Below the pieces are notes generated by a model. That model did not search any database and had not been told where the DNA came from. It saw nothing but the letters and a program-made list of their open reading frames with translations. The translations under genes and the position numbers were made by a program. This document shows positions 14,129-48,827 of a stretch of DNA of 48,827 nucleotides, one piece after another. This DNA is from a virus (lineage: Duplodnaviria; Caudoviricetes), in IMG/VR virus record IMGVR_UViG_3300028536_000021, positions 1-48,827 of that record; one strand, written 5' to 3'. Positions within the stretch are counted from its first letter, which is position 1. Every line of letters begins with the position of its first letter.

Positions 14129-14131
14129 CAA

Positions 14132-14281
14132 ATGCAAAACTTCTTAGCCGACCTCCCCAAACTCCTCGTCCTCACTGGCCTAGGCCTTGTCGACATATTC
14201 TGGGTCTCTCAGTACAACCCGCCCTTGGCCATCGTGGGCTTCCTCGTGTTGTCTTTTATCAGCTCGCAGGTTATTCAATGA
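14132..14281 (+). CDS. Two-TM micro-protein, 49 aa
   Basis: MQNFLADLPKLLVLTGLGLVDIFW…AIVGFLVLSFI; ATGA coupling. Confidence 0.5.
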   Translation: MQNFLADLPKLLVLTGLGLVDIFWVSQYNPPLAIVGFLVLSFISSQVIQ

Positions 14282-14505
14282 GCAAGCTCGAAGCTCGCGA
14301 TCGCCTCCACGAACACATGTTCCGGATGCACCAACAAGGTATGACTTGGTCGCAGATCGGAGAGTTCTTCGGTCGCCGAGGGCCAAGCATCAAACGGTCC
14401 ATTCAAATCTGGATAGCAAAGCATGGCCAGGATTATCAACACAGCGAAGATGGCCCCAGAAAGGTTGAAGGCGTGGGAAAGGGATCAAATTTACAACGGT
14501 CTTGA
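14278..14505 (+). CDS. Small HTH protein
   Basis: QQGMTWSQIGEFFGRRGPSIKRSI. Confidence 0.55.
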   Translation: MSKLEARDRLHEHMFRMHQQGMTWSQIGEFFGRRGPSIKRSIQIWIAKHGQDYQHSEDGPRKVEGVGKGSNLQRS

Positions 14506-15967
14506 TTGCTGCGTGACAATGGAGGTTTTCGATGTCTTGCGGCCACAACTGGACGCTACTACGCGGGCCACCTATTCTTTCTCCAAAGAACTCCAAGGTC
14601 CTGTGCTTGAAATGCGGCTGCGTGGAGTCCTTGTTGACCAAGAACGCAAAGCCGAAGTCTTCGACCTCTACTTCGAACGACTCGATCGCCTCGAATCCCA
14701 GCTCGAACGGATCGTCCGAGAAGGTGTCGGGATGCACGGATTCAACTGGCAAAGCCCAAAGCAACTAGCGGAGCTGTTCTATGATCGTCTTGGAATTCCA
14801 CCCGTGCGATATCGAGGAAATGTCACAGTCAATCGGGGAGCTCTTGAGAAGTTGGAATCATATCTTGTGGCTAGACCAATTATCAATCACCTTACAGCCA
14901 TGCGAGACATCGGAAAGAAAATCAGCGTTCTTAAAACTGACATTGACTCCGACGGGCGTATCAGAACCTCGTACAATATCGGAGGCACGAACACTGGTCG
15001 CCTTTCTTCTTCACTGTCAGAATTTGGCACCGGGGGTAATCTTCAAAATATTGAAGACCTCCTCCGTTCCATCTTCGTCGCCGATCCAGGAATGAAGATG
15101 GCCTACATCGATGCCGAACAAGGCGAAAGCAGAGTTGTCGGAGGGATTGAGTATGCACTGTTCGGTGATGGTCGTTATTTGGATGCATGCGAGAGCGGTG
15201 ACCTTCATACAACGGTGGCTAAGCTCGTCTGGCCCCGATTGCCTTGGACAGGGGACATTGATCGAGATATGGATCTCGCCGAACAACCGTATTATCGGCA
15301 CTATTCAAGACGGTTTATGTGTAAGAAAATTGGACATGGAACTAACTACGCTGGTCAGCCACGGACGCTTGCTGAACAAGCCAAGGTCGATGTGGAGCTG
15401 ATCGAAGAATTCCAGCCCATCTACTTCCGCGCCTTCCCCGCGCATTTGAAATGGCACGCCAATGTCCAAACCCGACTCGAATCCTCCGGCACTCTCACCT
15501 CCCTCCTCGGCCGAAGACGCCAGTTCTGGGGCCGCCGGAACGACCCCGAAACTCTCCGCGCGGCAATCGCTTATGATCCACAGGGAAGCCTTGCTGATAT
15601 CGTCAATCGAGGAGGACTTCAGCTTTGGAAGGCGAAGCTCTGCCAGATCTTAATGCAAGTCCATGACGCCTGGGTAGTGCAGTATCCAGAGAAGCAGGAG
15701 GATGAGATCTTGCCAAAGATCGTTGCGGCTTTGCGTTACCCGGTCGAGATTAGCGATCGGCAGTTGGTCATTCCCTACGATATAAAAACCGGATGGAACT
15801 TCGCCGAATATTGCTGCGGCGATCGAACACGGCCTGAATGCAAAGAATGTAGGAAAGAACAAAATCTCCATGGGCTCAAGAAATACCGCGGAAAAGACAA
15901 ACGGCAGCGCCCAGCGGCAGTGCATTTCCTGGATCGAATCATTCGTAAAGTGGGGAGCGGAACTTGA
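14423..15967 (+). CDS. polA: Family A DNA polymerase (ExoIII plus polymerase domain)
   Basis: YNGLD (ExoIII); GVLVD; FNWQSPKQ; TNTGRLSSS; NLQN; motif A YIDAEQGESR; motif B RFMCKKIGHGTNY; motif C QVHDA. Confidence 0.93.
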   Translation: MARIINTAKMAPERLKAWERDQIYNGLDCCVTMEVFDVLRPQLDATTRATYSFSKELQGPVLEMRLRGVLVDQERKAEVFDLYFERLDRLESQLERIVREGVGMHGFNWQSPKQLAELFYDRLGIPPVRYRGNVTVNRGALEKLESYLVARPIINHLTAMRDIGKKISVLKTDIDSDGRIRTSYNIGGTNTGRLSSSLSEFGTGGNLQNIEDLLRSIFVADPGMKMAYIDAEQGESRVVGGIEYALFGDGRYLDACESGDLHTTVAKLVWPRLPWTGDIDRDMDLAEQPYYRHYSRRFMCKKIGHGTNYAGQPRTLAEQAKVDVELIEEFQPIYFRAFPAHLKWHANVQTRLESSGTLTSLLGRRRQFWGRRNDPETLRAAIAYDPQGSLADIVNRGGLQLWKAKLCQILMQVHDAWVVQYPEKQEDEILPKIVAALRYPVEISDRQLVIPYDIKTGWNFAEYCCGDRTRPECKECRKEQNLHGLKKYRGKDKRQRPAAVHFLDRIIRKVGSGT

Positions 15968-17075
15968 GACCCCGGAGATCTTCCGGCAATGGGGCGCGAT
16001 CGCCATGGTTTCAGCGGTCCTGGAGCAGAAGGCCTTCTTCTTCAACTCGGGGATCGTCTACCCAAACCTATTCGTGATGTTAATCGGCGGCCCTGGGGTC
16101 GGAAAGAGCCGGACGATCCGGCCGCTTCGGGCCTTGGCCAAGGAACTCAAAGGCTTCCACATCAGCCCCGACGATATGACCGGGGCGTCGTTGGTCGACG
16201 CCATGGTCAACGCCACAAGGACCATCGATGCAAGTATCCTCGACAACCGGCCAGCCGTGTACTTCAATTCCCTCTTCGCAATGGTCAGCGATCTCCAATC
16301 GACCATGCACGACTACAACAACGAACTCGTTGCGAAGATGACGATCTTCTACGACTGCGACCCGTTTATGCAAGCTCGGCGGGGGATCAAGGAGAACGCG
16401 AGCATCGACTCACCGCAGTTATCAATGCTGACCGGCACGACCGACTCGCACCTGATAAAGACCCTTCCCGAAGGTGCGTGGGAGCAGGGGTTCATGTCGC
16501 GGACGATAATGGTCTACTCGGCCGCTCGGGCAATGAAGGATGATTTCTTCGAGGAAAAGCCCAAACCAATTCCAAAGGAACTAGAACATGATCTTAAAGC
16601 AATCTTCGGCCTTCACGGCCAGTTTAGCGCTGATGATGATTTTCGCGCTGCCTTTAATAGCTGGCGACGAGAGGGACACAAACCTGCTCCTGATCACCAA
16701 AGGCTCAAAAGCTACTGCGCCAGAAGAGAAATCCACTTGCTCAAGCTGGCCATGGTCTCCAGCGCCGACCGCGGAGATTCCCTCGGTATGGATCTGCAAG
16801 ACTTCAACCGGGCTAAGACTTGGTTGGAATCTGCGGAACGGGCAATGCCCATGGTGTTCGAGCAAGCAGTGTCAGTCGACTCAAAGCTCATGCTTGAGGT
16901 AGCCGACTCGATCGGGTCCAAAGGGGTAATGGAACACACCTTCATGCGGAGGATGGCGGGAAAATTCCCCGGCCACGCCGTTCGCAGGGTCGTGGAGTTG
17001 ATGGTCGACTCGAAGATGATCGAGTTCTCCAACGGCAAAGGTGTACAGAGGTGGGTTAGGAAGGTTGATGGATAA
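15870..17075 (+). CDS. DUF3987-like AAA+ ATPase, putative replicative helicase
   Basis: YPNLFVMLIGGPGVGKS; LSMLTGTT; QGFMSR; HLLKLAM; start codon uncertain. Confidence 0.75.
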   Translation: MGSRNTAEKTNGSAQRQCISWIESFVKWGAELETPEIFRQWGAIAMVSAVLEQKAFFFNSGIVYPNLFVMLIGGPGVGKSRTIRPLRALAKELKGFHISPDDMTGASLVDAMVNATRTIDASILDNRPAVYFNSLFAMVSDLQSTMHDYNNELVAKMTIFYDCDPFMQARRGIKENASIDSPQLSMLTGTTDSHLIKTLPEGAWEQGFMSRTIMVYSAARAMKDDFFEEKPKPIPKELEHDLKAIFGLHGQFSADDDFRAAFNSWRREGHKPAPDHQRLKSYCARREIHLLKLAMVSSADRGDSLGMDLQDFNRAKTWLESAERAMPMVFEQAVSVDSKLMLEVADSIGSKGVMEHTFMRRMAGKFPGHAVRRVVELMVDSKMIEFSNGKGVQRWVRKVDG

Positions 17076-17382
17076 TGCCAATCCCTCGGCGGAGTTCATC
17101 ATACCACTGCTCAAGCTTGCCGACCCTACGGTCCAATCCTGTAGCCCGCTCTCGATCAACGGCAAGGGACTCCATTCGGATCTCAAGGCTCTCAACGCGC
17201 TGGTCGATCTTTTCCGAGACTGTCTTAAGCGCTGTGAGTTCTCTTGTTTGTTGCTCGCCGATGAGTTGGAATGACGTTAGCACCTGCCCCAGCTTAACAG
17301 ACAACATCACCACAGCCCAGACAACCGCACCGACGACTGTGGTGATACCTATTCCCAATGCAACCCACGCTTCCGGATTCAT
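17056..17382 (-). CDS. N-terminal TM plus coiled-coil protein (holin- or i-spanin-like)
   Basis: AWVALGIGITTVVGAVVWAVVMLSV followed by heptads; last gene of the late arm. Confidence 0.65.
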   Translation of the reverse strand: MNPEAWVALGIGITTVVGAVVWAVVMLSVKLGQVLTSFQLIGEQQTRELTALKTVSEKIDQRVESLEIRMESLAVDRERATGLDRRVGKLEQWYDELRRGIGIIHQPS

Positions 17383-17401
17383 TTCCAGATCTTTCAACGG
17401 A

Positions 17402-17426
17402 GAAAAGGGAGGGCCGAAGTCCTCCC
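17402..17426 (-). terminator. Probable terminator after the OMP gene
   Basis: GGGAGGAC-UUCG-GCCCUCCC-UUUU on the minus strand (one mismatch). Confidence 0.55.
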
Positions 17427-17444
17427 GAAGTCCTCCCCAAGTCG

Positions 17445-18080
17445 TCAGAACTTGTAGTTCAACGAGAGCTTTATGATATCGTCAGTCTTCTGAGTGGTCG
17501 ATCCATCCGCTAGGGTGTTCGCCCCGTAGACAGCATGGATGTAATCCAATTTCCCAAACCACCTGGCGCTGACGTCGAAGGCAATGCCCGCTCCTGTCGC
17601 CCATGCCGATCCCCATGGCCTCTCGATCGCGCCGAGCTTGATGTATGGTGATAGTGTCGAGGCGAGAAGGCTCGCCGGGAGTGTGCCCGGGATGGTCGGC
17701 GTGGTGCCGAAGATGCCACTGAGGGGCATCCCAAGATCCACGAACTCCCCGAACATGTAGCCTGGGTTGATGGCGGCAGGGAGGGCATTGGCCACTCCTG
17801 CATTCTGGAACATGTAATCCCCGAAGACCTCTGCTCCGAAGTACACCTTGGAATCCCAGTACTGGTAGCCGGCGTTGAGGCCGAGGCCGCCGCCATTGGC
17901 GAAAATGCCACCTCCGGCCACATTGAGTCCACTGCCAACCCCGGCGACGTTGAAGCCACCGTAGAAGCCGGAGCAGGCAGTGGTGGTGCAAGGGACGTAG
18001 GTCGAGGCTTTGGGAAGGTCTGCGCCAAAGCTAGGACTAACCAACACCGAAAGGCCAAGGGCAACGAGTAGGTTACGCAT
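17445..18080 (-). CDS. Omp25/Omp31/RopB-like 8-stranded outer-membrane beta-barrel protein
   Basis: Signal peptide then ADLPKA; SGFYGGFNV; AGYQY; YFGAE; PYIKLG; WATGAGI; C-terminal beta-signal LSLNYKF; GGAGG SD. Confidence 0.85.
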   Translation of the reverse strand: MRNLLVALGLSVLVSPSFGADLPKASTYVPCTTTACSGFYGGFNVAGVGSGLNVAGGGIFANGGGLGLNAGYQYWDSKVYFGAEVFGDYMFQNAGVANALPAAINPGYMFGEFVDLGMPLSGIFGTTPTIPGTLPASLLASTLSPYIKLGAIERPWGSAWATGAGIAFDVSARWFGKLDYIHAVYGANTLADGSTTQKTDDIIKLSLNYKF

Positions 18081-18267
18081 CTTTCCCTCCCGTCGGTGCA
18101 TTGAGCGCCTTCATATGCATCGCCACCCCAGCCACCATAGTGGCCGCAGTGCCAAGATCCGCAGCAATGGCCGTCATCTGATCGCCGGACAAGTGGTACC
18201 TGCCGGCCACCCACGACAGCCCTGCCGTTGCCGCGTAGCCTGCAATCGGCTTGAACATTTCAAACAT
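18073..18267 (-). CDS. Small two-helix membrane protein, putative holin
   Basis: Two moderately hydrophobic segments; AGGAGG SD; TAATG coupling. Confidence 0.5.
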   Translation of the reverse strand: MFEMFKPIAGYAATAGLSWVAGRYHLSGDQMTAIAADLGTAATMVAGVAMHMKALNAPTGGKDA

Positions 18268-29718: not shown

Positions 29719-29931
29719 CTAGTGCTTCCCTTGCGTCCCACAGCACCGAACGGAGTCGCCCCCAAGGCCGACCATGCCGGAGGTCTGTTTGGATTCAGAG
29801 TAAGGGCCTTGCGAACCTTGCTTCCCACAGTTATCGCCTTGCAGACCGGGAGCCTGAGCCTCGTCGATGTTCCTTGGGCCTTTGGGCGCCTGGTAGTTCA
29901 TTGTGGTTGTGGATGAGCGACCTTGTTTCAT
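29719..29931 (-). CDS. Small Gly-rich protein, paralogue of 30089-30325
   Basis: MKQGR…CGTQGKH. Confidence 0.7.
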   Translation of the reverse strand: MKQGRSSTTTMNYQAPKGPRNIDEAQAPGLQGDNCGKQGSQGPYSESKQTSGMVGLGGDSVRCCGTQGKH

Positions 29932-30065
29932 TCTTCGTCCTCCTCAACGCCCGCCACCGCAGCGATCAGTGACTGCCGCGCCGCAGCGTGGACCTGCGCC
30001 AACGCCGGATCACCGGCCGTTCCATTCAACACCGCTACCATTGCCGCCAAATCTAACCAGTTCAT
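29928..30065 (-). CDS. Small protein, 45 aa (MNWLDLAAMVAVLNG…EEDEE)
   Basis: AAGGAG SD; ATGA coupling. Confidence 0.6.
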   Translation of the reverse strand: MNWLDLAAMVAVLNGTAGDPALAQVHAAARQSLIAAVAGVEEDEE

Positions 30066-30088
30066 CCTTGTCTCCTTTGAGAGTTGCC

Positions 30089-30325
30089 TTAGTACTGTCC
30101 TTGAGAACCACAGCTCTTTACTTTCCTGTTGGCCCCTGGCCCTTGGCCCATGCCATCGGTCGGACCATTGTGCGCTGCAGCATAGCCCGGCCCGTCATGG
30201 AACTTCTCGGCCGCCTTCGGGTCGATCGCTGAGCCGAGCTGTGAGGGGAAGTTCTGATTGATCGCATAGGGCCGAGGTTCGACCTTCGGAGCCGAGGTGT
30301 TGGAGCTAGCTCTACCTTGCTTCAT
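30089..30325 (-). CDS. Small Gly-rich protein
   Basis: AAGGAG SD; MKQGR…CGSQGQY. Confidence 0.72.
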   Translation of the reverse strand: MKQGRASSNTSAPKVEPRPYAINQNFPSQLGSAIDPKAAEKFHDGPGYAAAHNGPTDGMGQGPGANRKVKSCGSQGQY

Positions 30326-30725
30326 TGGAGTTCTCCTTTGGCTTGCCTAATTGCCTCGTGTGATCCCACCGATTGTCTGGGTCCTTGGCCATCTCCCGCC
30401 GGACTTTCTCGAACACGCCGCCGTCGGTATGGGCCTCTTCGAGAAGTTGGCGGTACCGGTCGTCGCAGCGTTCCATTTCTCGCAGGATATGTTGCGGAAC
30501 CGGAAGCCCACGCTCTTCGTGCATGTTCACGATGTCATGAACATCATGGCAGTACATAATAAACCGCCGCATCTTCTCCGAGACTTCCTTCTCGGCCTCT
30601 TTCATGTAGAAGACAACATCCTGCATCATCTTCTTGACTGATTGCATCTCCTGAGCGCCACGCAGCGTGTTGGTTTGGATCTGGGCGAGAACTTCAAGAA
30701 GTTTGTTGAATTGTTCCTCAGACAC
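30312..30725 (-). CDS. Hypothetical helical protein (GTG start, MSEEQFNK…)
   Basis: GGAGGG SD before GTG 30725. Confidence 0.68.
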   Translation of the reverse strand: MSEEQFNKLLEVLAQIQTNTLRGAQEMQSVKKMMQDVVFYMKEAEKEVSEKMRRFIMYCHDVHDIVNMHEERGLPVPQHILREMERCDDRYRQLLEEAHTDGGVFEKVRREMAKDPDNRWDHTRQLGKPKENSNEAR

Positions 30726-30918
30726 TTGCCGACCCTCCTGTTCCCCCAGCGCCTCCAGGGCCTTGGAGGCGCTTCTTCTTCCGGAGAATTCCGGTCTTCG
30801 CATCAGCGCGGTTGAAGTCCTTCCCGACTGACTGCGGGACCCCGGCTTTCTTCGCGAAGGCTGGGCTGTGCGCAACGGCTGCCATGAGCCTGGCTTGAGA
30901 TTTGCTGGTGCTGGGCAT
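30718..30918 (-). CDS. Conserved small phage protein (MPSTSKSQARLMAAVAHSPAFAKKAGVPQSVGKDF)
   Basis: N-terminus resembles a common small podovirus protein; TAATG coupling. Confidence 0.75.
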   Translation of the reverse strand: MPSTSKSQARLMAAVAHSPAFAKKAGVPQSVGKDFNRADAKTGILRKKKRLQGPGGAGGTGGSASV

Positions 30919-32750
30919 TAGATGAAGAGCTCCGAGAAGTTCATATTACCACCGTTGATTGTCATACCGCCAGAGTTACCAGCGCCGAAGTTTATAGAGT
31001 AAGTCGCTGAGGCTCCGGGCACATCGAAGGCTGATAGCGAGGCCAAGGAGCCAAAGACGGTGTAGCTGACCCCTGTGTTGGTAAAATTGAAGCTGTTTGA
31101 TGTTATCTGCGTTCCTCCGCGAAATATAGCAGGTGCGAAGGTATTACTACTAGCGCCAACAAGGAATTCAACACCAATCTGCGCCTCAACCTTCACCACG
31201 TTGCAAGGACTAACTAGCGAAAGAGGCACAGAGGTAGAGCCGGAGTTGAATTGGCACTTGACCAAATCCCCCGGCTTCTTCTGCCCAGGGCCAAACAGCT
31301 GGACCTTGCTCGGCGCCGTCGCCCAAGTCCCTGCGGTGGCTTGAGTCGATTCGATGTAGCCAATGATTCGGAAAGCCCGAGAGGTCTGTGAAGTCGCCGC
31401 GTACCAAGTCTGTGTAGAAGTCGAGCCAGCGGAGATCCCAGTCGGGCTCGGAGCAACACTTTCGTCCCAAGCAACGATCTGGGAAGAAGCCGCCAGCAGG
31501 GAGTTGTAGACGCCGAGAACAGGTCCGGAGACGCCATCAAACACCCCAACCCAGATCCGATTTGGCAAGCCGGAGACGGTGCCCAGGGTTGCACCGACAG
31601 GAACGGTGATCGAAAGGGGCGTGGTGATAGCGCGAGTGACTGAGTTCCCGCCTGCCGAGACGGTGTAGAGGACTGGCGAGGACGGAGTCGGATCATTCCC
31701 ACTCCAGTCCTTGATGGCAATGGTCAGGGCGTTCGAGGCAACAGTGGCGTTAAGTTGGAGATTCAGCGGCGCGTTGAGGCCTGTCCGCTGGCCGAAGTCA
31801 ATAAACCAAGCCCCCGCCGCGTTGGTCTGAACAAATACCGTAACCCCCGGCGGCAATGTCAGGCCTTGTCCTGTCGGAGCCCCAACAAAGTTGTCCGAGG
31901 CGTTGATTGCCAGGGTGACTGCAAAGCCATTCGTTTGAATCCAGAACCCAAAGCTGGGGAATAGCGTCGAGGAAAGCGGAAAGGTGTAGGTTATTGGGGC
32001 AAAGACCTGACGTCGAGTGAGATCAAAGCCAGCCACAACAGACTGATTAACAGCATCAGCAATAAACCCAAAAACAACTCTCGCGTTTCCGGCTCCATCG
32101 TCCTGAAGTCCTGCGCCGATGCCTTCCGTTGCCATAGCCCCAAGGCCAAAGGCAGTTCGGCCGGCAGCGAGGGTAGCAGCGGCTACGACAGGAGCCATGG
32201 CAGAGGAGACAGGCGAGTTAGCCCCACCACCTGCGGAGGCTGTTGGGTTGCCGCTAGAATCCCAAGTGAAGAACAATCCGGCCCTCGCGGCAACAGCGGG
32301 AACAGGGCCCGGAGTTGGATCAGAGACTGAGACCACTAGGGCTCGGTTCTGGATCTCAAGGATCTGCTGCGAGGTCATCATCTCGTAGTCGAGGGCCTCC
32401 TCGACCACAGGCTGCCAGAGGGTTCCTTGGTTAGCCAAGGAGGTGTTCTGCTGAAGCGGAAGAGCGCGGAGGATGGTGAGGAAGGAGCCGAAGGGAATCG
32501 GCGAGCCAGGATTGTAGGTGACGCTGCCGCCGACCGGAGTTGGATTGGTGCCGGTGGGAGGGTTCACGATGAGGATGTAGGCAGTCGGCGCGAGCAGGCT
32601 CACCACGCCAGAGGTATTGGTGAAGTAAACCTGGATCTGCGCGGATTGTTGCGTCAGAGTGCCTGCGGGCACGTCGAAGGTGAACGGAAAGACCGTCGCC
32701 GAGGCGTTGCCGGGGTAGATGATTTTGTTCAGGGTTGTGGAGACGGTCAT
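30918..32750 (-). CDS. Tail fibre protein with T7 gp17-like N-terminal anchor
   Basis: MTVSTT…YPGNASATVFPFTF…EEALDYEMMTSQQ; ARTAFGLG-type motif; beta-rich body. Confidence 0.82.
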   Translation of the reverse strand: MTVSTTLNKIIYPGNASATVFPFTFDVPAGTLTQQSAQIQVYFTNTSGVVSLLAPTAYILIVNPPTGTNPTPVGGSVTYNPGSPIPFGSFLTILRALPLQQNTSLANQGTLWQPVVEEALDYEMMTSQQILEIQNRALVVSVSDPTPGPVPAVAARAGLFFTWDSSGNPTASAGGGANSPVSSAMAPVVAAATLAAGRTAFGLGAMATEGIGAGLQDDGAGNARVVFGFIADAVNQSVVAGFDLTRRQVFAPITYTFPLSSTLFPSFGFWIQTNGFAVTLAINASDNFVGAPTGQGLTLPPGVTVFVQTNAAGAWFIDFGQRTGLNAPLNLQLNATVASNALTIAIKDWSGNDPTPSSPVLYTVSAGGNSVTRAITTPLSITVPVGATLGTVSGLPNRIWVGVFDGVSGPVLGVYNSLLAASSQIVAWDESVAPSPTGISAGSTSTQTWYAATSQTSRAFRIIGYIESTQATAGTWATAPSKVQLFGPGQKKPGDLVKCQFNSGSTSVPLSLVSPCNVVKVEAQIGVEFLVGASSNTFAPAIFRGGTQITSNSFNFTNTGVSYTVFGSLASLSAFDVPGASATYSINFGAGNSGGMTINGGNMNFSELFI

Positions 32751-32885: not shown

Positions 32886-35216
32886 CTATTGATTCTCGTA
32901 CACACCGCTTAGTTCGTAGTGCTCGCTGTTAGAAAAATTGCTGTTGTCAGCCCGACTGCATGACACGCTTGTGGCTCCCGATGAAGCGGTACAACTTAGC
33001 CCTCTCCCATTCAAAGCAACTTCACGCCCATTAATAGCTATTGCCGAATTTGAAGTGTTCGGTATATTCCAGGTAATAGAATTTGCAGCCACCGTCCCGG
33101 CTGCGCTGATTGTAAAGTCAAGAGCAAGTTGCGTAGTATGACGAAGCGTCTTTACCCGAGCTGTGTTGACAGTGAAAGTTGCTGTTTGCCCCCAAGTGAT
33201 GGCCGGTGTAAAAACCTGCGGGATGCCTTCAACAGTCAGACCAGCAGCATTGCTGAATTCCGTCGCGTATGTCTTGACCAGATTGTCCGAGACCACACCG
33301 TTAAGAGAAGCCCCATTTATTGTGATGCCGGTGCCACTGGCCGCGATGTTAACGAGCGTATTGCCAAGGAACGTAAATCCACTGATTGCAAGGTTCGTAC
33401 CCCCGGCATATCCGGTGAAGACATTTCCTCCGATCGCCCAGCGCTGGTTAATGGTCGAGACTTCGGCGGCGTAAATACCATAGCCGCTGGCATTCGAACC
33501 ACCGCCGTGACAGACATTTCCTGTAATCGTGACATCATTGTCGGCGAGGAAACCGTGGCCGCCAACATTATTGTCAACGAAGTACATGCAGGTGCCGCTG
33601 TAGCCAACACCGAGAGCTGATGAGGTTGCCTGCTGAACCTCGTTCCCGACGATCGTCAGACCGGACGAATTTTCCTCGAAGTGCATTGCGTTTTGCTGAT
33701 ATGTACCTTCAAGCATGTTGCCTGCAATGGTGGCGTTCGTGATATTTGAAAGTCCGATCGGCAGATCGTTGGCGTTGTTCAGACCAACAGAACCCATATG
33801 AATGCCTTCGATCACAAGCCGGTCGAACGTTCCACTCGGGCTATTGATGTTGAGGTGACCGGTGATGTTCTGATTGTAGAAGCCGCCACGGAAGGTGAAG
33901 CGCCGGTTGGTCGTTGTTGTTGCATTCGCCTTGAGCAGCACATAATTCCAACCGGATACATCAGCGTTTTCTGCACGAAAATCATTAACCTCTATACCCG
34001 TCTGCGGAATGTTCCAGACGACAGTTGTTGCCGATGGACCGATTATCATCGTCTCGGTGGCGGCGCCCGTCACCGATGTGGTGTAGGATGCCGACGGGAC
34101 CACGTTATCTGACTGAGCGATACTGACGAACGAGCCAACGGCCGTGGCAACGATCCCGGCGCCTGAAATCGGGCCATTGGCATTGATTGCAGCGGCGAGC
34201 GCGGTCGCCATCTGCGCCGTGGTCTCCGCCGTGGTGATCGGCGATGAAATCGTGATTGGCGATCCGGCCAGGCCGGTTGAGGTGAAGATGACTCTGATCG
34301 CATCGCCATTCGTTGCCGAGCCACCAATCAACACGCCTTCGACGGCGTTCGATGTTAGCGCGACGTTCTGAAACTGGAAGTCACTCGCCCCCGGCTGGAA
34401 CAGAATGCCCTGCTGCGTTCCCGTGCCGTCACCGTTGAGCTGGATCGTCAAGTTACGGAAAATGACGTGCGGGTTGTTGAGGAGAAATGCCGTCGCCAAC
34501 GGTGTGCCGGTAAGAGATAGTTTCAGAATCGATGTGTTCTTGCCAGCGCCTTCGATAATGGTATTACTACCCGGCGTAGCAAGCGACGTAGCTGATGGCA
34601 GTGTGACGGCAAAGGTTCCCGCGGGGATGTAAATCTTGTTTCCCGAGCCTGCGGTAAACGCGCTCTGAATGGCGGTGAAGTTATTCGTAACACCATTGCC
34701 AACTGCGCCATAGGCCGGATCGGCGATGTTCACGACCGGATAGTTGCAGTCCTGCGGCGGGCCCGAGCCGGCGGCCGAATTGCACTTCATAGTCTGATTC
34801 GCCATGTTGGCGAGATTGGAATTGGCAACCGTGGCGCTGGCGATGTTGCCGCCCGTGATCGTACCAGAGGCAACCTGCGTGCTGGTGATCGTAGCAGCCG
34901 CGATACCCACCGCTGTCAGCGCCTGATATGCCGGATCAGCACCAGTGCCATTGCTCACCCACGGAAGGCCAGTGGTTCCGGGGACAGTGCAGGCCCAACC
35001 AGCCACGGCTCGCTCAAGGATCCCCCCACGTGTCGAGCAGAACGCCGCATCGAAAGCCGCAGAGAGGTTCGTCGGCGAAGCAATGTTCTGTTGGACGAAC
35101 TGCGTCGAAGCAATCCGATTAGTGCTATCGGCGACTGGCGCAGTGGTCGTGGTCGTGGCGAATTGGGCCTCAGCAGGCGAGGCCAGGAGCAAAGCAAAAG
35201 CAATAAGGCGTTTCAT
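32886..35216 (-). CDS. Beta-helix tailspike / polysaccharide depolymerase with N-terminal signal peptide
   Basis: MKRLIAFALLLASPAEA|Q; fibre-type motif APVADSTNRIASTQFV; pectate_lyase_3-like YGAVGNGVTNNFTAIQSA…IYIPAG; repeated ITGN/IVGN rungs. Confidence 0.82.
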   Translation of the reverse strand: MKRLIAFALLLASPAEAQFATTTTTAPVADSTNRIASTQFVQQNIASPTNLSAAFDAAFCSTRGGILERAVAGWACTVPGTTGLPWVSNGTGADPAYQALTAVGIAAATITSTQVASGTITGGNIASATVANSNLANMANQTMKCNSAAGSGPPQDCNYPVVNIADPAYGAVGNGVTNNFTAIQSAFTAGSGNKIYIPAGTFAVTLPSATSLATPGSNTIIEGAGKNTSILKLSLTGTPLATAFLLNNPHVIFRNLTIQLNGDGTGTQQGILFQPGASDFQFQNVALTSNAVEGVLIGGSATNGDAIRVIFTSTGLAGSPITISSPITTAETTAQMATALAAAINANGPISGAGIVATAVGSFVSIAQSDNVVPSASYTTSVTGAATETMIIGPSATTVVWNIPQTGIEVNDFRAENADVSGWNYVLLKANATTTTNRRFTFRGGFYNQNITGHLNINSPSGTFDRLVIEGIHMGSVGLNNANDLPIGLSNITNATIAGNMLEGTYQQNAMHFEENSSGLTIVGNEVQQATSSALGVGYSGTCMYFVDNNVGGHGFLADNDVTITGNVCHGGGSNASGYGIYAAEVSTINQRWAIGGNVFTGYAGGTNLAISGFTFLGNTLVNIAASGTGITINGASLNGVVSDNLVKTYATEFSNAAGLTVEGIPQVFTPAITWGQTATFTVNTARVKTLRHTTQLALDFTISAAGTVAANSITWNIPNTSNSAIAINGREVALNGRGLSCTASSGATSVSCSRADNSNFSNSEHYELSGVYENQ

Positions 35217-35219
35217 CTC

Positions 35220-35567
35220 TCACCCCGCGGACAGATTAATGTTATAGTTCTGTGGCACCGCGCTGGCGCCATAGAGGTACTCGATCACCGAGACCTTCGC
35301 CCCCGCCGCCGAGCCAATCGCGTTCCACGCAGTGAGGGCCTGGTCGCCGAAGACGTCGAACTTCTCCCCTGGCGACAGTGGGATTCCAGTGTCCGCAACT
35401 GCGACCGTCGGCGCCTGAACCAGCCAGACGTTCTGTTGGCCAGCGATGTTGGCGTTGATGAAGGTCAGCTTGCGCCTAGCAGCCTGCGGAGTGGTCGCTC
35501 CAACCACAGGGTTGGCCGCAATCACCTGCGTGCTGGCCGTGCCAACCGTTGTGGTTGTGAGTGCCAA
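35220..35567 (-). CDS. Small beta-sandwich virion-type protein (TTG start, MALTTTTVGTAS…), no signal peptide
   Basis: GGAGG SD before TTG 35567; RRKLTFIN…GIPLSPG pattern. Confidence 0.65.
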   Translation of the reverse strand: MALTTTTVGTASTQVIAANPVVGATTPQAARRKLTFINANIAGQQNVWLVQAPTVAVADTGIPLSPGEKFDVFGDQALTAWNAIGSAAGAKVSVIEYLYGASAVPQNYNINLSAG

Positions 35568-35569
35568 GG

Positions 35570-36094
35570 CTACCTCCGATCGGTCAGCTTGCCCAGAAGC
35601 TGGGTGTTCTGCGCCATCACCTGCGCCAACATCGCCAAGGTCTCGGTCAGCTGGTCGTTGACCGGCGGCGGGGCCTTCATCTCGTCCTGCATGGTCAAAA
35701 TCATCCGCTCCGCGAAGGTCATCCCGTCGCCAAGCTCGAAGAACCTCGTCGGGTCGTGCCACTGGAAGGTCGCCGAGATGGCCTTAGCCTCATCATCGAT
35801 CGGCTCCATGTCCGGCGTCGGGTCGCCGATGAAGACATAGTCGTGGGGCTCGCCGTGGCCTTGGTGGCACACGGTGATGAAGCCCTCATCAAAGGAATTG
35901 CCGCCGCGAGCTATGTTGGCCGAAGACGAGCCGGGTTTGTTGTTCCAATCCGCCGCGCAGTGCGGGTCGAGGTGGATCGGGACGGGGTACTTTCGCTTCT
36001 TCTGCCGACCAGAGATCCGGTCGACCTCGGTTTGTTCCCAGAAGACATCGGGGGAGCGAAGGTAGTGGGACTGGACGAGAAGCCAACGGGCCAT
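35570..36094 (-). CDS. Hypothetical protein (MARWLLVQSHYL…GDPTPDMEPIDDEAKAIS)
   Basis: AGGAG SD before ATG 36094. Confidence 0.75.
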   Translation of the reverse strand: MARWLLVQSHYLRSPDVFWEQTEVDRISGRQKKRKYPVPIHLDPHCAADWNNKPGSSSANIARGGNSFDEGFITVCHQGHGEPHDYVFIGDPTPDMEPIDDEAKAISATFQWHDPTRFFELGDGMTFAERMILTMQDEMKAPPPVNDQLTETLAMLAQVMAQNTQLLGKLTDRR

Positions 36095-36104
36095 GAGAGT
36101 TCTC

Positions 36105-36635
36105 CTAGAGTTGATAGCCCCAAGCCGACACAGCGGTGACTCCACCAAGGCCGGCTGCGGCTGAGTTGATGGCGATCGAGGTGTTCAGGGCAGAGGCTGG
36201 GATGCAAGGCGAGAAGGTCTGCGGGAGCTGGTAGACGCCAGGAAGCGCAGAGATTCCCTGGACGTAGTTGAGCGAGCCGGAGATGGTGCCAGAGACCGTC
36301 GCAGTGCCGCTAAGGCCTAGGGTTGCGGAAGAGGTGATGGTGAAGCCGCAGAGGTAGGTGGTCTTAGCGGCCGCCGCGGCAAGGGTCGCGGTGACAGAGG
36401 CGATTGTGCCTGTGGCGGAGGCAGTGAGGGGAGTGGAGCCGGCGGGATAGGGCCCAGGCAGGGACACCGGTAGTGGATTCGCGGTTGTGCAGGGCACCCA
36501 GTGATTAGTGCCGTCGTTGCACATAACCACCCGACTCTCAATGTTTATTCCATTAGGAGACGGAAAGGAAGCTTGGGCAAGTGCCCCAACAGACAAAAGC
36601 GAAAGAGCTGATGCAAGGAGGAGCTTGTTCATCAT
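36105..36635 (-). CDS. Signal-peptide beta-sandwich protein, 4 Cys
   Basis: MMNKLLLASALSLLSVGALA|Q; TAATG coupling. Confidence 0.78.
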   Translation of the reverse strand: MMNKLLLASALSLLSVGALAQASFPSPNGINIESRVVMCNDGTNHWVPCTTANPLPVSLPGPYPAGSTPLTASATGTIASVTATLAAAAAKTTYLCGFTITSSATLGLSGTATVSGTISGSLNYVQGISALPGVYQLPQTFSPCIPASALNTSIAINSAAAGLGGVTAVSAWGYQL

Positions 36636-37057
36636 TAGAATTGCCCCCAGTAGATGGTATAAGTGACATTCGTAGCAGTTATAACACACAAATTTGTTTG
36701 CGTATTAGGCGGCGTAGCTGCAGCATTAGTGGTCGGAGCAGAAGTGAAAGCGTAAGTTCCATGATCAATAAATGTTCCGACTGGTAATCCAGACCAATTA
36801 ACAATATTAACTGTATTCGCCGCACATGCAACACCAGTGCCGTATACTAATTGAAATGCAGCAGCTGTTGTAGTACCATTGACATCCCAACCGCAAACAA
36901 CAATATTTCTACCAACAATAGCTGTCGCTATTGATTGAGCTACAGCGCTTTGTGTTGCTTGATTGCAGAGGATCGGATTCGGCGCCCCGATCCCCTGGGC
37001 CCAGCCCTGCCCGCATAGCGCGAGAAGGGCGAAGGCAGCGAGAAGAAGCTTTCTCAT
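36635..37057 (-). CDS. Signal-peptide beta-sandwich protein, 4 Cys in mature part; likely paralogue of 36105-36635
   Basis: MRKLLLAAFALLALCGQGWA|Q; GRNIVVCGW versus AKTTYLCGF; ATGA coupling. Confidence 0.78.
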   Translation of the reverse strand: MRKLLLAAFALLALCGQGWAQGIGAPNPILCNQATQSAVAQSIATAIVGRNIVVCGWDVNGTTTAAAFQLVYGTGVACAANTVNIVNWSGLPVGTFIDHGTYAFTSAPTTNAAATPPNTQTNLCVITATNVTYTIYWGQF

Positions 37058-37539
37058 CGAAGCTTGTACCAAGCGTTGGTTGCCAGGAGGTAACGATATT
37101 CCACACTCGCTCCTGCCGCAAGCGTAGCCAAAGCAACACCAGTTGCCCCATTCACGATGGTTGATCCATCGGTGGTGGCAATGGTGGCGCCAGTGAAGGC
37201 CGCACCAGATCCATTGACCCACTCAAAGATCTCACCGTCCCAAGGAATAGGTGGAAGCTGAATGGCCAAGGCTGACGATGCAGCAGTGGAGATCAAAGTG
37301 GCAGGGCTCTGATTAACAAGAGTTAGCGTGCCAGTGGTTAGTGCTGTGCTTTGAACTCCCTGACTATTTCGCATCTGAGAAGTGGCAGCGTAGAAGCTTG
37401 TTCCGCCAATGCCGGCTTGAAGAAGAACAACTTCGCTCCCTGTTAGAGTTCGAGAGGTCAGCTGCTGAGCAACTGCAAGCCCGACCCCAACCAAGGCAAG
37501 GGCCGCAGCCCCTGCCAACAAGTACCGCTTCATAATCAT
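37054..37539 (-). CDS. Signal-peptide protein with fibre-type LP…G…W domain
   Basis: MIMKRYLLAGAAALALVGVGLAVA|Q. Confidence 0.78.
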   Translation of the reverse strand: MIMKRYLLAGAAALALVGVGLAVAQQLTSRTLTGSEVVLLQAGIGGTSFYAATSQMRNSQGVQSTALTTGTLTLVNQSPATLISTAASSALAIQLPPIPWDGEIFEWVNGSGAAFTGATIATTDGSTIVNGATGVALATLAAGASVEYRYLLATNAWYKLR

Positions 37540-37850
37540 TATGGCCCCCATTCGTTTGCCGCGAGTTTTCTAAAGATCAATGTCTGCTGTGACTGACCAT
37601 GTGAAGATATTCCACTGCGAAAGGAGTCGCCTGTGGAGCAGTAGATTGTAACCTCACCATTAATATCGGAATATACCTCGATCACATCTCCGATATCAGA
37701 ATCGCTTGGGAGCAATAACCCCGGCGAAGGACCACCACCATTAGTCCTAACTATCGTTGTTCCATGATGTGTTGGGATAAGAGCAGCAGTAGACTGATCC
37801 GTTCCTGTAGCAGTAACATCAACGATAATGACTTCGGTTACAACCGTCAT
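37539..37850 (-). CDS. Small fibre-type beta domain protein, no signal peptide
   Basis: GGAGG SD; LLPSDSDIGDVIEV…NEW. Confidence 0.7.
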   Translation of the reverse strand: MTVVTEVIIVDVTATGTDQSTAALIPTHHGTTIVRTNGGGPSPGLLLPSDSDIGDVIEVYSDINGEVTIYCSTGDSFRSGISSHGQSQQTLIFRKLAANEWGP

Positions 37851-37860
37851 GCTCACCTCC

Positions 37861-38316
37861 TCAGCTAACAGCCACACAGAGCCAGTTAAACGTAGTCGTC
37901 GTCGCCGTCTGGTTGAAGGTGAAGCCTGTCGTCGCGGCCGCAGTCACAAACGTAGTGGCTGCTGTCGCATTATTCGGCGTCACCAAGCAACGAGGAGCAG
38001 TGCCATAAGTCTGGCCAAAAACAACGGCACAAGTGGCCGCAGTAGCACCAGTTACCTGCCCAGAGAAGTCAGTAGAACCAGCAGTGAGAGTTCCACCGGT
38101 GCAGGTACCAAGGGTAGGTGGGGTGGAGGTAGTTTGGGCATTGAAATGGCGATTGTTAAACATCACCAAATTGCCAGAACTATCTACACCAAAGTTGCCA
38201 CGAGCATCCTGCGACAACTGAAGCGAGGAGGTAATAGTCTGTGCAACTACCAACCCACCAGCAAAGAATGCACCACAGGCAAGGGCAGTGGCAAGTCTCT
38301 TTAGAACCGATTTCAT
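37861..38316 (-). CDS. Signal-peptide Thr-rich beta protein (fibre-tip / lectin-like), 4 Cys in mature part
   Basis: MKSVLKRLATALACGAFFAGGLVVA|Q; VFGQTYGTAPRCLV…FNWLCV. Confidence 0.75.
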   Translation of the reverse strand: MKSVLKRLATALACGAFFAGGLVVAQTITSSLQLSQDARGNFGVDSSGNLVMFNNRHFNAQTTSTPPTLGTCTGGTLTAGSTDFSGQVTGATAATCAVVFGQTYGTAPRCLVTPNNATAATTFVTAAATTGFTFNQTATTTTFNWLCVAVS

Positions 38317-38326
38317 CCTTCCCTCC

Positions 38327-38887
38327 TCAGTTTGCGATCACAACGCCAGCGGGATAGCCGGACAGTATGCCAGTCTGCGAGCCGATCTGGTCGAACCGAT
38401 CGAGGACGAGCGTGGCTTCCAGCGCGCCACCAGTCGAAGCAGCACCAGCGATGATGTACTGCATACGAAGGAACCTCGGCACCGGCTGGCCCTCAGGATA
38501 CCGCGGCAGGTCGACCTCCAACAGCCGCTGACCAGCCACGCCAAGCTGGGCACCAGTCACGAAGGTATAAACCGGCGAGAGGATCATGTCGTACCAAGTA
38601 CCAGGGAGACCAGAGCCGTTGTCTGGCGCGCCCTGGATCTTGACTTGAAGGGTAGTGGTGCCAGAGGTGCCAGTCAGCGCAGCGGTGAGCTGAGCCAGCA
38701 CCTTCATCGCTGGATCGTCGCCAACGCCGAGGTCGCGAGCGCCACCGCCAGCCGAGGAGGGTGGAAGACCGGAGATGCCAAGGTCGAGGACGTTAGCGCT
38801 GGTCAAAGTGCCAATAGCGCCAACCAAGGAGTCAGACGGCGCGGCCGAACCGGTGCCGGTGAAGAAGAGTAGACCATCTAGAATCAT
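38327..38887 (-). CDS. Capsid cement/decoration protein (Bbp16-like)
   Basis: MILDGLL…SANVLDLG…RDLGVG…RFLRMQY; directly after the major capsid gene. Confidence 0.82.
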   Translation of the reverse strand: MILDGLLFFTGTGSAAPSDSLVGAIGTLTSANVLDLGISGLPPSSAGGGARDLGVGDDPAMKVLAQLTAALTGTSGTTTLQVKIQGAPDNGSGLPGTWYDMILSPVYTFVTGAQLGVAGQRLLEVDLPRYPEGQPVPRFLRMQYIIAGAASTGGALEATLVLDRFDQIGSQTGILSGYPAGVVIAN

Positions 38888-38909: not shown

Positions 38910-39953
38910 TTACGTCAGTGCTGCTTCATTGTTCAGGATCGCGTCGCAAGTTCGGATCGGAATCCCGCGGAACGTGGTGATAGGCTTCCCATCGAACTCC
39001 TCGAGCCGAAGCAGGACGTTGGTTTTGTTCATGGCCTGGAGGTCCAGGTAGGTCCGAATCACTCGGTTGCAGTAGATAATCGTCCGGCCCATGTTGGCCC
39101 GGACCTGCGGAGTGTCGGAGGTCTGGATGGTCGTCGCAGATGCCGGCGCAGTGGGGAGCTTGTACAGGCCGCGGACCAGCAGGTTGATCAGGTTCGCGGC
39201 CGACACACCGGTGAGTTGGGTGATGTCGATGTTCGCTAGCCGACAGACATAGCGCCAGTCGCGGAGGACATACCCGATCTCCCACTTGAAGTGATCGCGG
39301 TAGGCTTGGTAGGTGTTGCCCGCCGAGTCCAGCACTGGCCATTCGCCCATATCGCGGTGTTGCAAGCCGGTGATCTTGCCTTTCGGAAAGGTCACATGGG
39401 CCGTGTCGTTGCCCCAAACGTGGAGCCAAATGGAGGTGTTGGTTGAAGCAGTGCCACCACCAGACAGGACGTTGTTCGCCGTCTGCGAGTTCGCGGTGTT
39501 GATCGTCGAGTAACGCGGCGCAAAGCCGGTGAAGCGCTCAGGGTTGATGCCCTGATTGCCGTAGATCATCGTGGCCGCAACCTGCTGGGACATCCCTTCA
39601 AGGAAGGCCATCACCTCCGAGAGCCGGAACTCCTGGGTGTTGCCATTCAGATCCGCGATGTCCTTGTCGATAACCGCGTAGGTCTCAAGGTTCCCGCAGG
39701 TGTCAACGATCTGCGCGGTGGTGGACTTCGCGTTCGGAACGCCGGTGTTCAGCAAGCGCCACGTGGCCTGCGGAAGGCCAGTCCGGACTGTGGTCTTGTG
39801 GCCGGTTGGAAGATTGCCCTCGATGACGTACATGTCTTCGAGGATCTCGTTGGTCTGGGACAGCATCTCGATGATCGTGGCGATCTTGTAGCCGTCGTCG
39901 AGACGCTTGGCCCAGTCGGCGTAGGTAATGGCGGTAGTGCCAAGAGTTGCCAT
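38910..39953 (-). CDS. Major capsid protein (BPP-1 Bbp17-like)
   Basis: IIEMLSQTNEILED…GNLPTGHKTTVRTGLP…FRGIPIRTCDAILNNEA. Confidence 0.92.
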   Translation of the reverse strand: MATLGTTAITYADWAKRLDDGYKIATIIEMLSQTNEILEDMYVIEGNLPTGHKTTVRTGLPQATWRLLNTGVPNAKSTTAQIVDTCGNLETYAVIDKDIADLNGNTQEFRLSEVMAFLEGMSQQVAATMIYGNQGINPERFTGFAPRYSTINTANSQTANNVLSGGGTASTNTSIWLHVWGNDTAHVTFPKGKITGLQHRDMGEWPVLDSAGNTYQAYRDHFKWEIGYVLRDWRYVCRLANIDITQLTGVSAANLINLLVRGLYKLPTAPASATTIQTSDTPQVRANMGRTIIYCNRVIRTYLDLQAMNKTNVLLRLEEFDGKPITTFRGIPIRTCDAILNNEAALT

Positions 39954-40670: not shown

Positions 40671-40962
40671 CTGCTTGTTCCTTCATCATCTGGATATAGG
40701 CTTCGGGGTAGGCCCGCATGACTCCCGCAAGAAGTCGAAGGCCAATTGATCGCTCACCCTCTCGAAAGACGGTGGACAGGGCCTCACCGGTGTAGGAGGC
40801 GTGGAAGATGTGACAGGCTTCCAAAAGCTCGCGCATCCACGAGCGGCCAGCGATAGAAGCCATGAGAGACTGTATGACCGCGTCATCCTGTGCCTCCCGA
40901 GCCCTGGATTCCTTCTCCTGTCGCCGTTGCCACCGTCGTTCCTCCGGGGTCAGATCGTCCAC
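40567..40962 (-). CDS. Bbp19-like head-module protein
   Basis: LMASIAGRSWM…FREGERSIGL. Confidence 0.75.
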   Translation of the reverse strand: MDDLTPEERRWQRRQEKESRAREAQDDAVIQSLMASIAGRSWMRELLEACHIFHASYTGEALSTVFREGERSIGLRLLAGVMRAYPEAYIQMMKEQADGRRDSVLDRRDHDDPRNYDDAGRWIGDGDGPYE

Positions 40963-41524
40963 GCGCTATCTCCATGCTTGCATCGGCGATCCTAGCCGAA
41001 CGGTGAAGCCAATCGTTACCGAAGTACTGGAAGCCCTTCGACTCGTGGTAGACTTCCTGCCGCCGAATGAAGAAGGCGTGGATGGTGGCGGCGGCAGAGG
41101 CCGGAAGGATAGAGCCAACTGCCGCCGCCGTCTTCGGACCCCAAACGCCATCCACAGCAAGGCCCAAGACATGCTGGAGGATCTTGATGGCTTCCGTCGA
41201 TCCCTCGTTGACTGCGGAATCAAAGAAGGAGAGGTCGAGGCCCGGAGGGAGAGCGGGAGAATGAGGGAGCCAGTACGAGTTGTAGTAGATCGAATGGCCT
41301 TCGGATTCGGAGATCAGCTGGACTGGTTGCACGGGAAGGTGGTGGTGTTTGCGCCAAGCGTCGTACTCGCGGGCGGTGATACCACACATGGTCTTGCCGC
41401 CAGGGTCGTGGCGGTCGTTGGAGAAGTTGCGGTGGACGTCGGACCAGACGAACGGATCGTGCCAAAGGACCTCCTCGCGGAGGACAAAAGGGAGGCAGGC
41501 GTAGAAGCGAGCGGGTTCGGTCAT
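40883..41524 (-). CDS. Endolysin, glycoside hydrolase family 108
   Basis: SNDRHDPGGKTMCGIT; IYYNSYW; FDSAVNEG; VDGVWGPKT; FGNDWLHR. Confidence 0.85.
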   Translation of the reverse strand: MTEPARFYACLPFVLREEVLWHDPFVWSDVHRNFSNDRHDPGGKTMCGITAREYDAWRKHHHLPVQPVQLISESEGHSIYYNSYWLPHSPALPPGLDLSFFDSAVNEGSTEAIKILQHVLGLAVDGVWGPKTAAAVGSILPASAAATIHAFFIRRQEVYHESKGFQYFGNDWLHRSARIADASMEIARGRSDPGGTTVATATGEGIQGSGGTG

Positions 41525-48630: not shown

Positions 48631-48788
<158 letters not shown>

Positions 48789-48827
48789 TTTTTTTATTTA
48801 TTTTAAAAAAAAAGAAAAAAAAAAAAA

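Follow-up and report, generated by a model that had tools for sequence, protein, structure and literature searches.

Why would a tailed phage send parts of its own particle out through the host's inner membrane? To our knowledge, tailed-phage assembly is taken to be wholly cytoplasmic, and classical beta-helix tailspikes and fibres fold in the cytoplasm without a leader peptide. In filamentous phages the virion proteins pIII and pVIII carry cleaved Sec leaders and pIII forms disulfides in the periplasm, but these proteins are membrane-anchored and the particle is extruded without lysis. Here we describe the window, the whole 48,827-nucleotide stretch of IMG/VR record IMGVR_UViG_3300028536_000021, in which five open reading frames of the virion module (between 32886 and 38316) begin with Sec-type leaders; unlike pIII and pVIII, their products have no mature transmembrane segment and belong to a lytic tailed phage. 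It seems to us reasonably probable that the variable spike, fibre-tip and decoration-like proteins of this clade mature in the host periplasm and then dock, at lysis, on a virion built in the cytoplasm. That the leader-bearing proteins are exported and oxidized is, on the sequence evidence, strongly inferred.

By its gene content, the window is an uncultured soil podophage of the type seen in BPP-1, epsilon15 and Carin1. It encodes terminase, portal, GH108 lysin, scaffold, GP7 capsid, Bbp16-like cement, tail tube, nozzle and ejection proteins; the portal, capsid, cement, tube and nozzle genes occur in BPP-1-type order, and BPP-1, epsilon15 and Jess A have portal, scaffold, capsid, cement, tube, nozzle and ejection genes in the window's order. 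Capsid identity to the nearest cultured relatives is at most 54%. In BPP-1 and Jess A a single short gene separates cement from tail tube, and no gene there bears a leader. In the head spike of the gene transfer agent RcGTA, a jelly-roll base pentamer of Rcc01079 is bound by a short N-terminal peptide of the Rcc01080 fibre (PMC7296036), and the Cobetia phage Carin1 has a solved head-spike base, gp40 (PDB 8cjz, GenBank PQ119497), and a fibre-like gene between its cement and tail connector genes. Both systems have a small jelly-roll base and then a fibre gene, and the Carin1 pair lies between cement and tail connector, as does the window's own pair, n7 and the spike. The RcGTA and Carin1 fibres have no leader and open with a Leu-Gly repeat, whereas the window spike has a Sec leader, paired cysteines and a tail-fibre repeat; it lacks the Leu-Gly start, and among the exported proteins of relatives eight begin in a loosely similar, Leu/Gly-rich way. 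Homology between n7 and gp40 is not detectable.

Other tailed-phage genes use host Sec as the window's five would: T4 Spackle, the signal-peptide (SP) and signal-anchor-release (SAR) endolysins, spanins, and Porphyromonas phage genes with Q-rule leaders. In the accounts available to us these have lysis, exclusion or unassigned roles, and none is a fibre, spike or decoration protein. Cysteine bonds stabilize virion parts of Milano, Q-beta and a siphovirus tail tube, in an account whose accessible text mentions neither signal peptide nor periplasm (PMC13576161); here, instead, an even number of cysteines per chain appears tied to export. That the HFTV1 turrets might be exported was considered and rejected: the accessible text of the HFTV1 preprint makes no mention of signal, secretion, disulfide or export, and neither it nor the accessible part of PMC9144972 bears on exported appendages. 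In the literature searched, which takes in few subscription journals, we found no Sec-exported virion appendage in tailed phages; the supplementary lists of leader-bearing genes in PMC10367356 may bear on this. The locus contributes a base-spike pair, still a candidate, whose leaderless counterparts serve as natural controls, and a proposed assembly route that we did not find described for tailed phages.

Leaders were called with a purpose-written heuristic for n-, h- and c-regions, which overlooks some leaders without Lys or Arg and gave false positives in 36 of 4,348 internal segments of leaderless proteins (0.8%) and in 28 of 2,054 segments of mature exported proteins. As the preliminary description held, five minus-strand reading frames start with a basic n-region, a hydrophobic core (best nine-residue Kyte-Doolittle mean 2.3-3.1) and an Ala|Gln site; all five sites (VVA|Q, AVA|Q, GWA|Q, ALA|Q and AEA|Q) and the mature cysteine counts of 4, 0, 4, 4 and 8 were recovered. 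We call these genes S1, S3, S4, S5 and the spike, and the leaderless genes of the module n2, n6 and n7 (Table 1); L-numbers label related loci and P-numbers database homologues. Close pairing of the cysteines, also claimed before, applies mainly to the spike (mature positions 43/59, 128/140, 526/552 and 725/736), and the interleaving with leaderless genes stands for n2 and n7, with a third such gene, n6, having been missed. The starts of the five adjoin or overlap the upstream stop, S1 has a strong ribosome-binding site, and S4 has no alternative start within its first 60 codons. The n- and h-regions, a small-X-small site, no lipobox and, by the heuristic, no mature transmembrane segment mark all five as candidate substrates of Sec and signal peptidase I. 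Applied to the called genes of the window, the heuristic returns these five, a gene for an outer-membrane-protein (OMP)-like product (17445-18080) and one low-scoring spurious reading frame; capsid, portal, cement, tail tube, nozzle and tail fibre are all leaderless by it.

Gln stands at +1 in 165 of 248 leader-bearing proteins, a count to be read with the heuristic's preference for Q, and the motif [AG]Q occurs in 203 of the 248 against 183 of 790. This is reminiscent of the Q-rule of Bacteroidetes, where Gln at +1 is common in signal peptidase I substrates (PMC5837995); we found no statement on other phyla in that paper, and the host hint here is Hyphomicrobiales. The exposed Gln could cyclise to pyroglutamate, as the preliminary description suggested. 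Three relatives have twin-arginine-like leaders (L016:6205-8454, L045:12710-14626 and L185:6528-7382), which suggests Tat export for part of the kit.

Cysteine content was surveyed in 164 loci (1,986 complete genes, 1,038 after 70% clustering). The mature count is even in 213 of the 226 leader-bearing proteins that contain cysteine. Leaderless proteins reach only 170 of 436, and core virion proteins 37 of 90. Cysteines are also gained and lost in pairs. In the S4 alignment (n=29), columns 14 and 47 both hold Cys in 23 rows, neither does in five, and a single one remains in one; in the S3 alignment (n=25), columns 16/33 are both Cys in 15 and neither in 10, and columns 113/157 both in 12 and neither in 13. 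The p-values for this pairing, 5e-5 to 2e-7, overstate independence because the alignment rows are related. Among the leader-bearing members of the best 120 database homologues, the count is even in 109 of 109 for S4 (2 or 4 Cys) and in 112 of 116 for S3. In S4 itself, C11/C35 is the co-varying pair and C58/C104 is near-invariant, and the AlphaFold2 (AF2) model, judged from strand order alone, is compatible with C11-C35 and C58-C104 bonds. In S1, C85/C122 is invariant in eight of eight sequences and C47/C71 are both present in seven of eight. Disulfides of exported proteins form in the periplasm by DsbA-type oxidation, and on a plain reading of the parity data cysteine oxidation would be tied to export. 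The preliminary description had proposed export with periplasmic disulfide formation, a claim that is now strongly supported because leaders occur clade-wide, cysteine counts are even, and cysteine pairs are gained and lost together.

Contigs from viral metagenomes often belong to this clade: IMG/VR has 573 capsid matches, of which 80, 85-100% identical, were kept for comparison. In these 80 relatives, leaders were called on 202 of the 527 genes that follow the capsid gene and on 11 of the 336 that precede it. In the 164-locus survey a lipobox is present in only six of the 248 leader-bearing proteins, and the leader sequences themselves are poorly conserved. A second, non-dereplicated set comprised 85 close loci anchored on the capsid gene (at least 80% identity, at least 3 kb downstream) and 24 distant ones (41-57%). 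At least one leader-bearing gene follows the capsid gene in 79 of the 85 close loci, and at least two in 69; of the six without a call, three (L062, L140 and L145) do show leaders on visual inspection, L154 lacks the module at this place, and only L182/L183 are truly leaderless. Such genes are absent from the module in 20 of the 24 distant loci, BPP-1 and Jess A among them. Whether homologues keep their leaders was checked on the best 120 database homologues each of S4 and S3, and 109 and 116, respectively, do. Genomes of the clade have up to nine exported parts, and the exported proteins of relatives include pectate-lyase-like, GDSL esterase, BNR and Ig domains; the exported spike of L153 matches tailspike PHROGs (E 3e-15 to 1e-9). 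Among cultured phages, the temperate siphophage Yong-M4-211 encodes two leader-bearing proteins after its fibre genes, both with an even Cys count: an S4 homologue and a 786-residue, 10-Cys protein (L110:14860-17647, OM868079; deposited with a Synechococcus host, by the record only). The tail region of Ssp-JY42 is described as having the same two. In three loci (L036:3092-5082, L062:1422-5144 and L145:492-983) leader-bearing module genes lie upstream of the terminase gene instead of after cement.

How might an exported spike be held on the particle? The label "tailspike" that it had been given is probably wrong. The tail-anchor domain is on the leaderless fibre 30918-32750, with which the PHROG anchor matches align, and none was found on 32886-35216; for this reason the spike needs another attachment, and it is probably a head or side spike, not a tail-anchored fibre, in which it also differs from classical tailspikes. 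Its body is likely a beta-helix, with weak matches at residues 97-241 to the phi29 pre-neck appendage and the Sf6 tailspike (E 2e-4 to 1e-2) and no Pfam or PDB sequence match. It shares a fibre repeat with P1 gpS, and the exported spike of one relative has an S74 chaperone (E 3e-4, just below the cut-off).

The gene preceding the spike, n7, is the candidate for a cytoplasmic base. From 94 matches we obtained 57 dereplicated n7 genes with a downstream neighbour; a leader-bearing gene follows directly in 48, and 44 of these begin with the fibre repeat PT-x3-D-x-[ST]N-x-x-A[ST]T-x-FV. The head motif of the window spike aligns with 30 relatives. In its leaderless form the repeat matches tail-fibre PHROGs, and that of L080 matches 386 phage records, including P1 gpS. 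Two cysteines are set into the repeat in 46 of 54 leader-bearing copies against two of 12 leaderless ones; the latter two show leaders when inspected by eye, and the 54 include two chance matches. In L125 and L182/L183, n7 is followed by a repeat-bearing spike with no leader (there is an in-frame stop just upstream) and no Cys loop, and therefore exported and cytoplasmic spikes appear to replace each other behind the same base; by its drawn placement in the n7 tree, the L125 gene nests among exported pairs on starred branches. In Acetobacteraceae prophages, a shared spike-type head comes with a leader in L087 and L092 and without one in L086. The genes concerned are L087:12875-14650, with six mature Cys, L092:12715-13629, and leaderless L086:12817-14463, with 15 Cys. 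A phage of a different capsid type also has an n7-type base, followed by a leaderless 798-residue spike-like gene (L188:7965-10697).

A second leaderless adaptor, DLDQ, is fused to leaderless fibres of 426-1,308 residues in five loci, with a weaker case in a further locus, L054, which has an S74 chaperone. As a stand-alone gene, it lies ahead of exported spikes with two other head motifs in eight of eight and three of four cases, and in the fourth case of the latter group the preceding gene is also DLDQ-like by profile. Docking on a leaderless base, as first proposed, therefore has indirect backing in the n7/spike pair, from synteny, the repeat and leaderless spikes in the same slot; it has none for n2, which has only a near-identical cluster-mate and does not align with the S3 family.

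Apart from one weak PHROG match (S5), none of the five exported proteins, nor n2, n6 or n7, could be placed in a family by searches of Pfam, PHROG and NCBIfam, and sequence and profile searches of the PDB yielded no significant match. The S4 model is a single jelly-roll with a predicted local distance difference test score (pLDDT) of 83.7. Its top structural matches are virion surface proteins: the KHP40 cement protein (Z 7.2, root-mean-square deviation 4.3 over 103 aligned residues) and 4dmi, a metagenomic pentameric capsid protein (7.0), followed by the HFTV1 turret (6.9), XepA (6.8) and the STIV turret (6.7); 819 S4 homologues were found. The n7 model (pLDDT 77.3) has as its BFVD neighbours small phage proteins at template-modelling scores of about 0.5-0.6, and Rcc01079 and gp40 were not among the matches listed in its fold searches. 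At E <=0.001, Foldseek matched neither S4 nor n7 to any PDB structure, and the matches in the ESM Atlas were unnamed viral clusters, apart from a PRD1 P5 spike-N lead at 0.79-0.85. The S1 profile matches the C-terminal domain of the exported spikes of L143-L145, L147 and L079. S3 is likely a beta-sandwich of the T4 gp9/gp10 or StcE kind, with weak matches to T4 gp10 (E 0.14), gp9/gp10 PHROGs and PF20944, and is weakly linked to the leaderless DLDQ adaptor (E 0.002-0.007). S5 is possibly a distant S4 paralogue (hhalign probability 21% over 20 columns). Judged from models and profiles, S1, S3 and S4 look like small folds of a non-enzymatic kind, closest to fibre tips or capsid decorations. Suspected likenesses between S4 and n7 and between n7 and Carin1 gp40 were rejected because hhalign did not bear them out, as was one between n2 and S3, for which hhalign found no profile match.

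Table 1. Features of the window (positions on the whole stretch) and the evidence on which each assignment is based
Feature	Position	Strand	Evidence
Membrane-protein trio: holin-like (18073-18267), leader-bearing OMP-like, ends in Phe (17445-18080), transmembrane + coiled-coil (17056-17382)	17056..18267	-	sequence
Conventional tail fibre, leaderless, N-terminal tail-anchor domain, 2 Cys	30918..32750	-	PHROG tail/tail-fibre families, residues 1-140, E 9e-16
Spike, 776 residues, leader 35166-35216 (AEA|Q), 8 Cys in four close pairs, mature N-terminal tail-fibre repeat	32886..35216	-	sequence
n7, 115-residue leaderless small jelly-roll, TTG start, candidate cytoplasmic spike base	35220..35567	-	AF2, synteny
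n6, 174 residues, leaderless	35570..36094	-	50 clade members, 0 with leader
S5, 176 residues, leader 36576-36635 (ALA|Q), 4 mature Cys	36105..36635	-	sequence
S4, 140 residues, leader 36998-37057 (GWA|Q), 4 mature Cys, decoration-like	36635..37057	-	AF2, homologues
S3, 161 residues, leader 37468-37539 (AVA|Q), no Cys	37054..37539	-	leader-bearing homologues; weak fold links
n2, 103-residue leaderless beta protein, lineage-specific	37539..37850	-	sole cluster-mate a near-identical copy (L001)
S1, 151 residues, leader 38242-38316 (VVA|Q), 4 mature Cys, stand-alone fibre-tip-like domain	37861..38316	-	profile matches
Cement protein (Bbp16-like), no leader, no Cys	38327..38887	-	PF21190 E 9e-4 (below cut-off); phrog_427 E 1e-7; synteny with BPP-1, Carin1
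Major capsid protein (GP7/Bbp17 type), no leader	38910..39953	-	PF20911 E 1e-129; 47.7% to BPP-1 Bbp17
GH108 endolysin, leaderless	40883..41524	-	PF05838 E 1e-16; no leader by heuristic

The leaders, the Ala|Gln sites and the even, co-varying cysteines are seen in the sequence, and from these Sec export, cleavage by signal peptidase I and Dsb-type oxidation are strongly indicated. Leaderless n7, cement and capsid would meanwhile assemble in the cytoplasm. P22 tailspikes and T4 Soc and Hoc fit spontaneously onto finished particles, and something similar could take place here at lysis. A large-hole holin is implied because the GH108 endolysin has no leader; with the two, virions and periplasm would mix, at high concentration, before the outer membrane fails. 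In the canonical holin-endolysin-spanin order, holins first make holes of micron scale, the wall is then degraded by the endolysin, and the outer membrane is the last layer to give way (PMC6116005). The mature N-terminal fibre repeat of the spike would then bind n7, like the RcGTA fibre peptide on its base pentamer, and S1, S3, S4 and S5 may attach to capsid, to cement or to each other and serve as appendages that bind glycans or surfaces. In a broader form, which we regard as an even call, a widespread group of tailed phages would use two-compartment assembly: capsid, tail and jelly-roll sockets would be built in the cytoplasm, a swappable, exported and disulfide-locked kit of spikes and decorations would attach by its N-terminal peptides once the inner membrane has been opened by the holin, the kit would be glycosylated in lineages with an O-antigen-ligase-like enzyme, and a fibre would switch route by gaining a leader and a Cys loop. 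Should docking at lysis prove true, the host's Sec pathway, signal peptidase and Dsb system would count as assembly factors of the phage and might be targeted in defence; appendages could be exchanged between phages that infect the same cell, modifications made in the periplasm could end up on virion proteins, and annotation pipelines would be misfiling leader-bearing phage genes as morons or host genes. The n7-spike pair, the leaderless controls L125 and L182 and the cultured Yong-M4-211 make the idea directly testable.

Several points weigh against docking at lysis. The clade is known from genes alone, attachment to the virion is inferred, and no partners for S1, S3, S4 or S5 were identified. 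Co-variation of adaptor and spike can be linkage alone, because neighbouring genes are co-inherited. The n7 profile does not match that of the Carin1 base gp40 (probability 0.9%), the fold matches of S4 and n7 are all below Z 8, with those of S4 close to non-viral rows, and the window spike head has no Cys loop, its n7 being a long-branch variant. The module is dispensable, as L182/L183 and L154 have no leader-bearing gene there, and the S4 relatives P0110, P0113 and P0119 (possibly fragments) have no leader and keep two Cys. The leader heuristic is not an established predictor. Finally, no lipoprotein o-spanin was found in the window, which makes the timing of lysis an assumption.

The main rival, raised in part by the preliminary description, is that the proteins are exported but stay off the virion, as soluble factors in the periplasm or released from the cell: depolymerases that clear capsule at lysis, decoys for receptors, or exclusion proteins of the Spackle kind that descend from former virion genes. 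T4 Spackle, a phage protein with a cleaved leader, does act in the periplasm (PMC7650644), the module varies and is accessory in character, encoding the GDSL esterase, BNR, pectate-lyase-like and Ig domains noted above, and the phage keeps an ordinary leaderless tail fibre. However, a free enzyme would not need an N-terminal fibre repeat, a fixed position beside n7, or interchange with leaderless spikes, and the decoration- or fibre-tip-like folds of S1, S3 and S4 are not enzymatic. We consider free factors unlikely, though they are the alternative that fares best.

The exported proteins could also remodel the surface of the infected cell by assembling on its outer membrane or peptidoglycan, together with OMP-like and O-antigen-ligase-like genes, so that receptors are masked or the cell is glued to other cells or to soil surfaces. 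Membrane proteins that resemble O-antigen ligase (Wzy_C), in which an H-N-D/E motif is conserved, do occur in the exported module of 11 related loci (including L038:12515-13651, L013:13578-14693, L059, L063, L150, L081, L029, L141 and L136), their gene lying directly after a leader-bearing gene in nine of nine relatives examined; none was found in the window. The window does have a leader-bearing OMP-like gene, and Porphyromonas phage genes with Q-rule leaders have been read as outer-membrane modifiers (PMC10367356). Against remodelling, the exported proteins have no evident membrane anchor, because the lipobox is so rare among them and the window's five lack a mature transmembrane segment; the genes are within the late virion operon, and no integrated prophage of the clade was found among 26 matches in GTDB species genomes. 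This explanation is improbable in our judgement. Mature exported proteins are 22% Thr+Ser, and periplasmic O-glycosylation by the phage Wzy_C-like enzymes is possible.

Could the N-termini instead be cytoplasmic leader or chaperone peptides, with disulfides arising by air oxidation after lysis, as can occur in other virions? In some phages tails and capsids are indeed linked by disulfides although no export is known (PMC13576161), and our leader calls come from a heuristic, not from SignalP. The typical n/h/c architecture, the small-X-small sites and the poor conservation of the leader sequences speak for export, however, as do even cysteine parity, which is confined to leader-bearing proteins, and a Cys loop found in the fibre repeat only of leader-bearing copies; we hold this alternative to be very improbable. 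That virions or tails enter the periplasm and are completed there well before lysis would explain the efficient fitting of so many exported parts, but it is scarcely credible given leaderless core virion proteins, no transport machinery seen and a cytoplasmic GH108 lysin that points to ordinary lysis.

The GH108 gene lies between the portal and scaffold genes, far from the holin-like genes, and its cluster has only three members among relatives. The OMP-like beta-barrel gene at the end of the late operon is a possible exclusion factor or lysis accessory; the window's own copy has no family or plasmid match, and that of L004 (L004:4422-5138) belongs to PF13505, with plasmid matches mostly in Bradyrhizobium, Rhizobium and kin, a hint of Hyphomicrobiales (rhizobial) hosts. 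Five close GTDB matches were not used as host evidence: they are contigs of 1.9-48 kb in unrelated bins, two of them Acidobacteriota. Leaderless n6, which ends in a helical C-terminal tail and lies in or beside the module, has no match in cultured phages and no family match.

A soil-metagenome contig spans 31152-40000 with one difference; its run, possibly the source sample, is the sole one listed with this region, and no RNA data set was listed with it. In addition, an IMG/VR contig is identical at 11,902 of 11,913 bases. The window ends (1-60 and 48768-48827) are low-complexity, AT-rich or homopolymeric, and no terminal repeat was found there. Ahead of the tail tube gene, a series of small conserved Gly/Lys/Gln-rich genes occupies 29719-30918 on the minus strand, one of which (30718-30918) matches the N-terminus of PHROG virion structural proteins. 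On the plus strand, a UvrD-like helicase with 19 Cys (6664-8823) has an internal HNH domain, possibly an intein or a homing-endonuclease insertion, and the Family A DNA polymerase (13082-15967) is split into a gene for uracil-DNA glycosylase and 3'-5' exonuclease and a gene for the polymerase.

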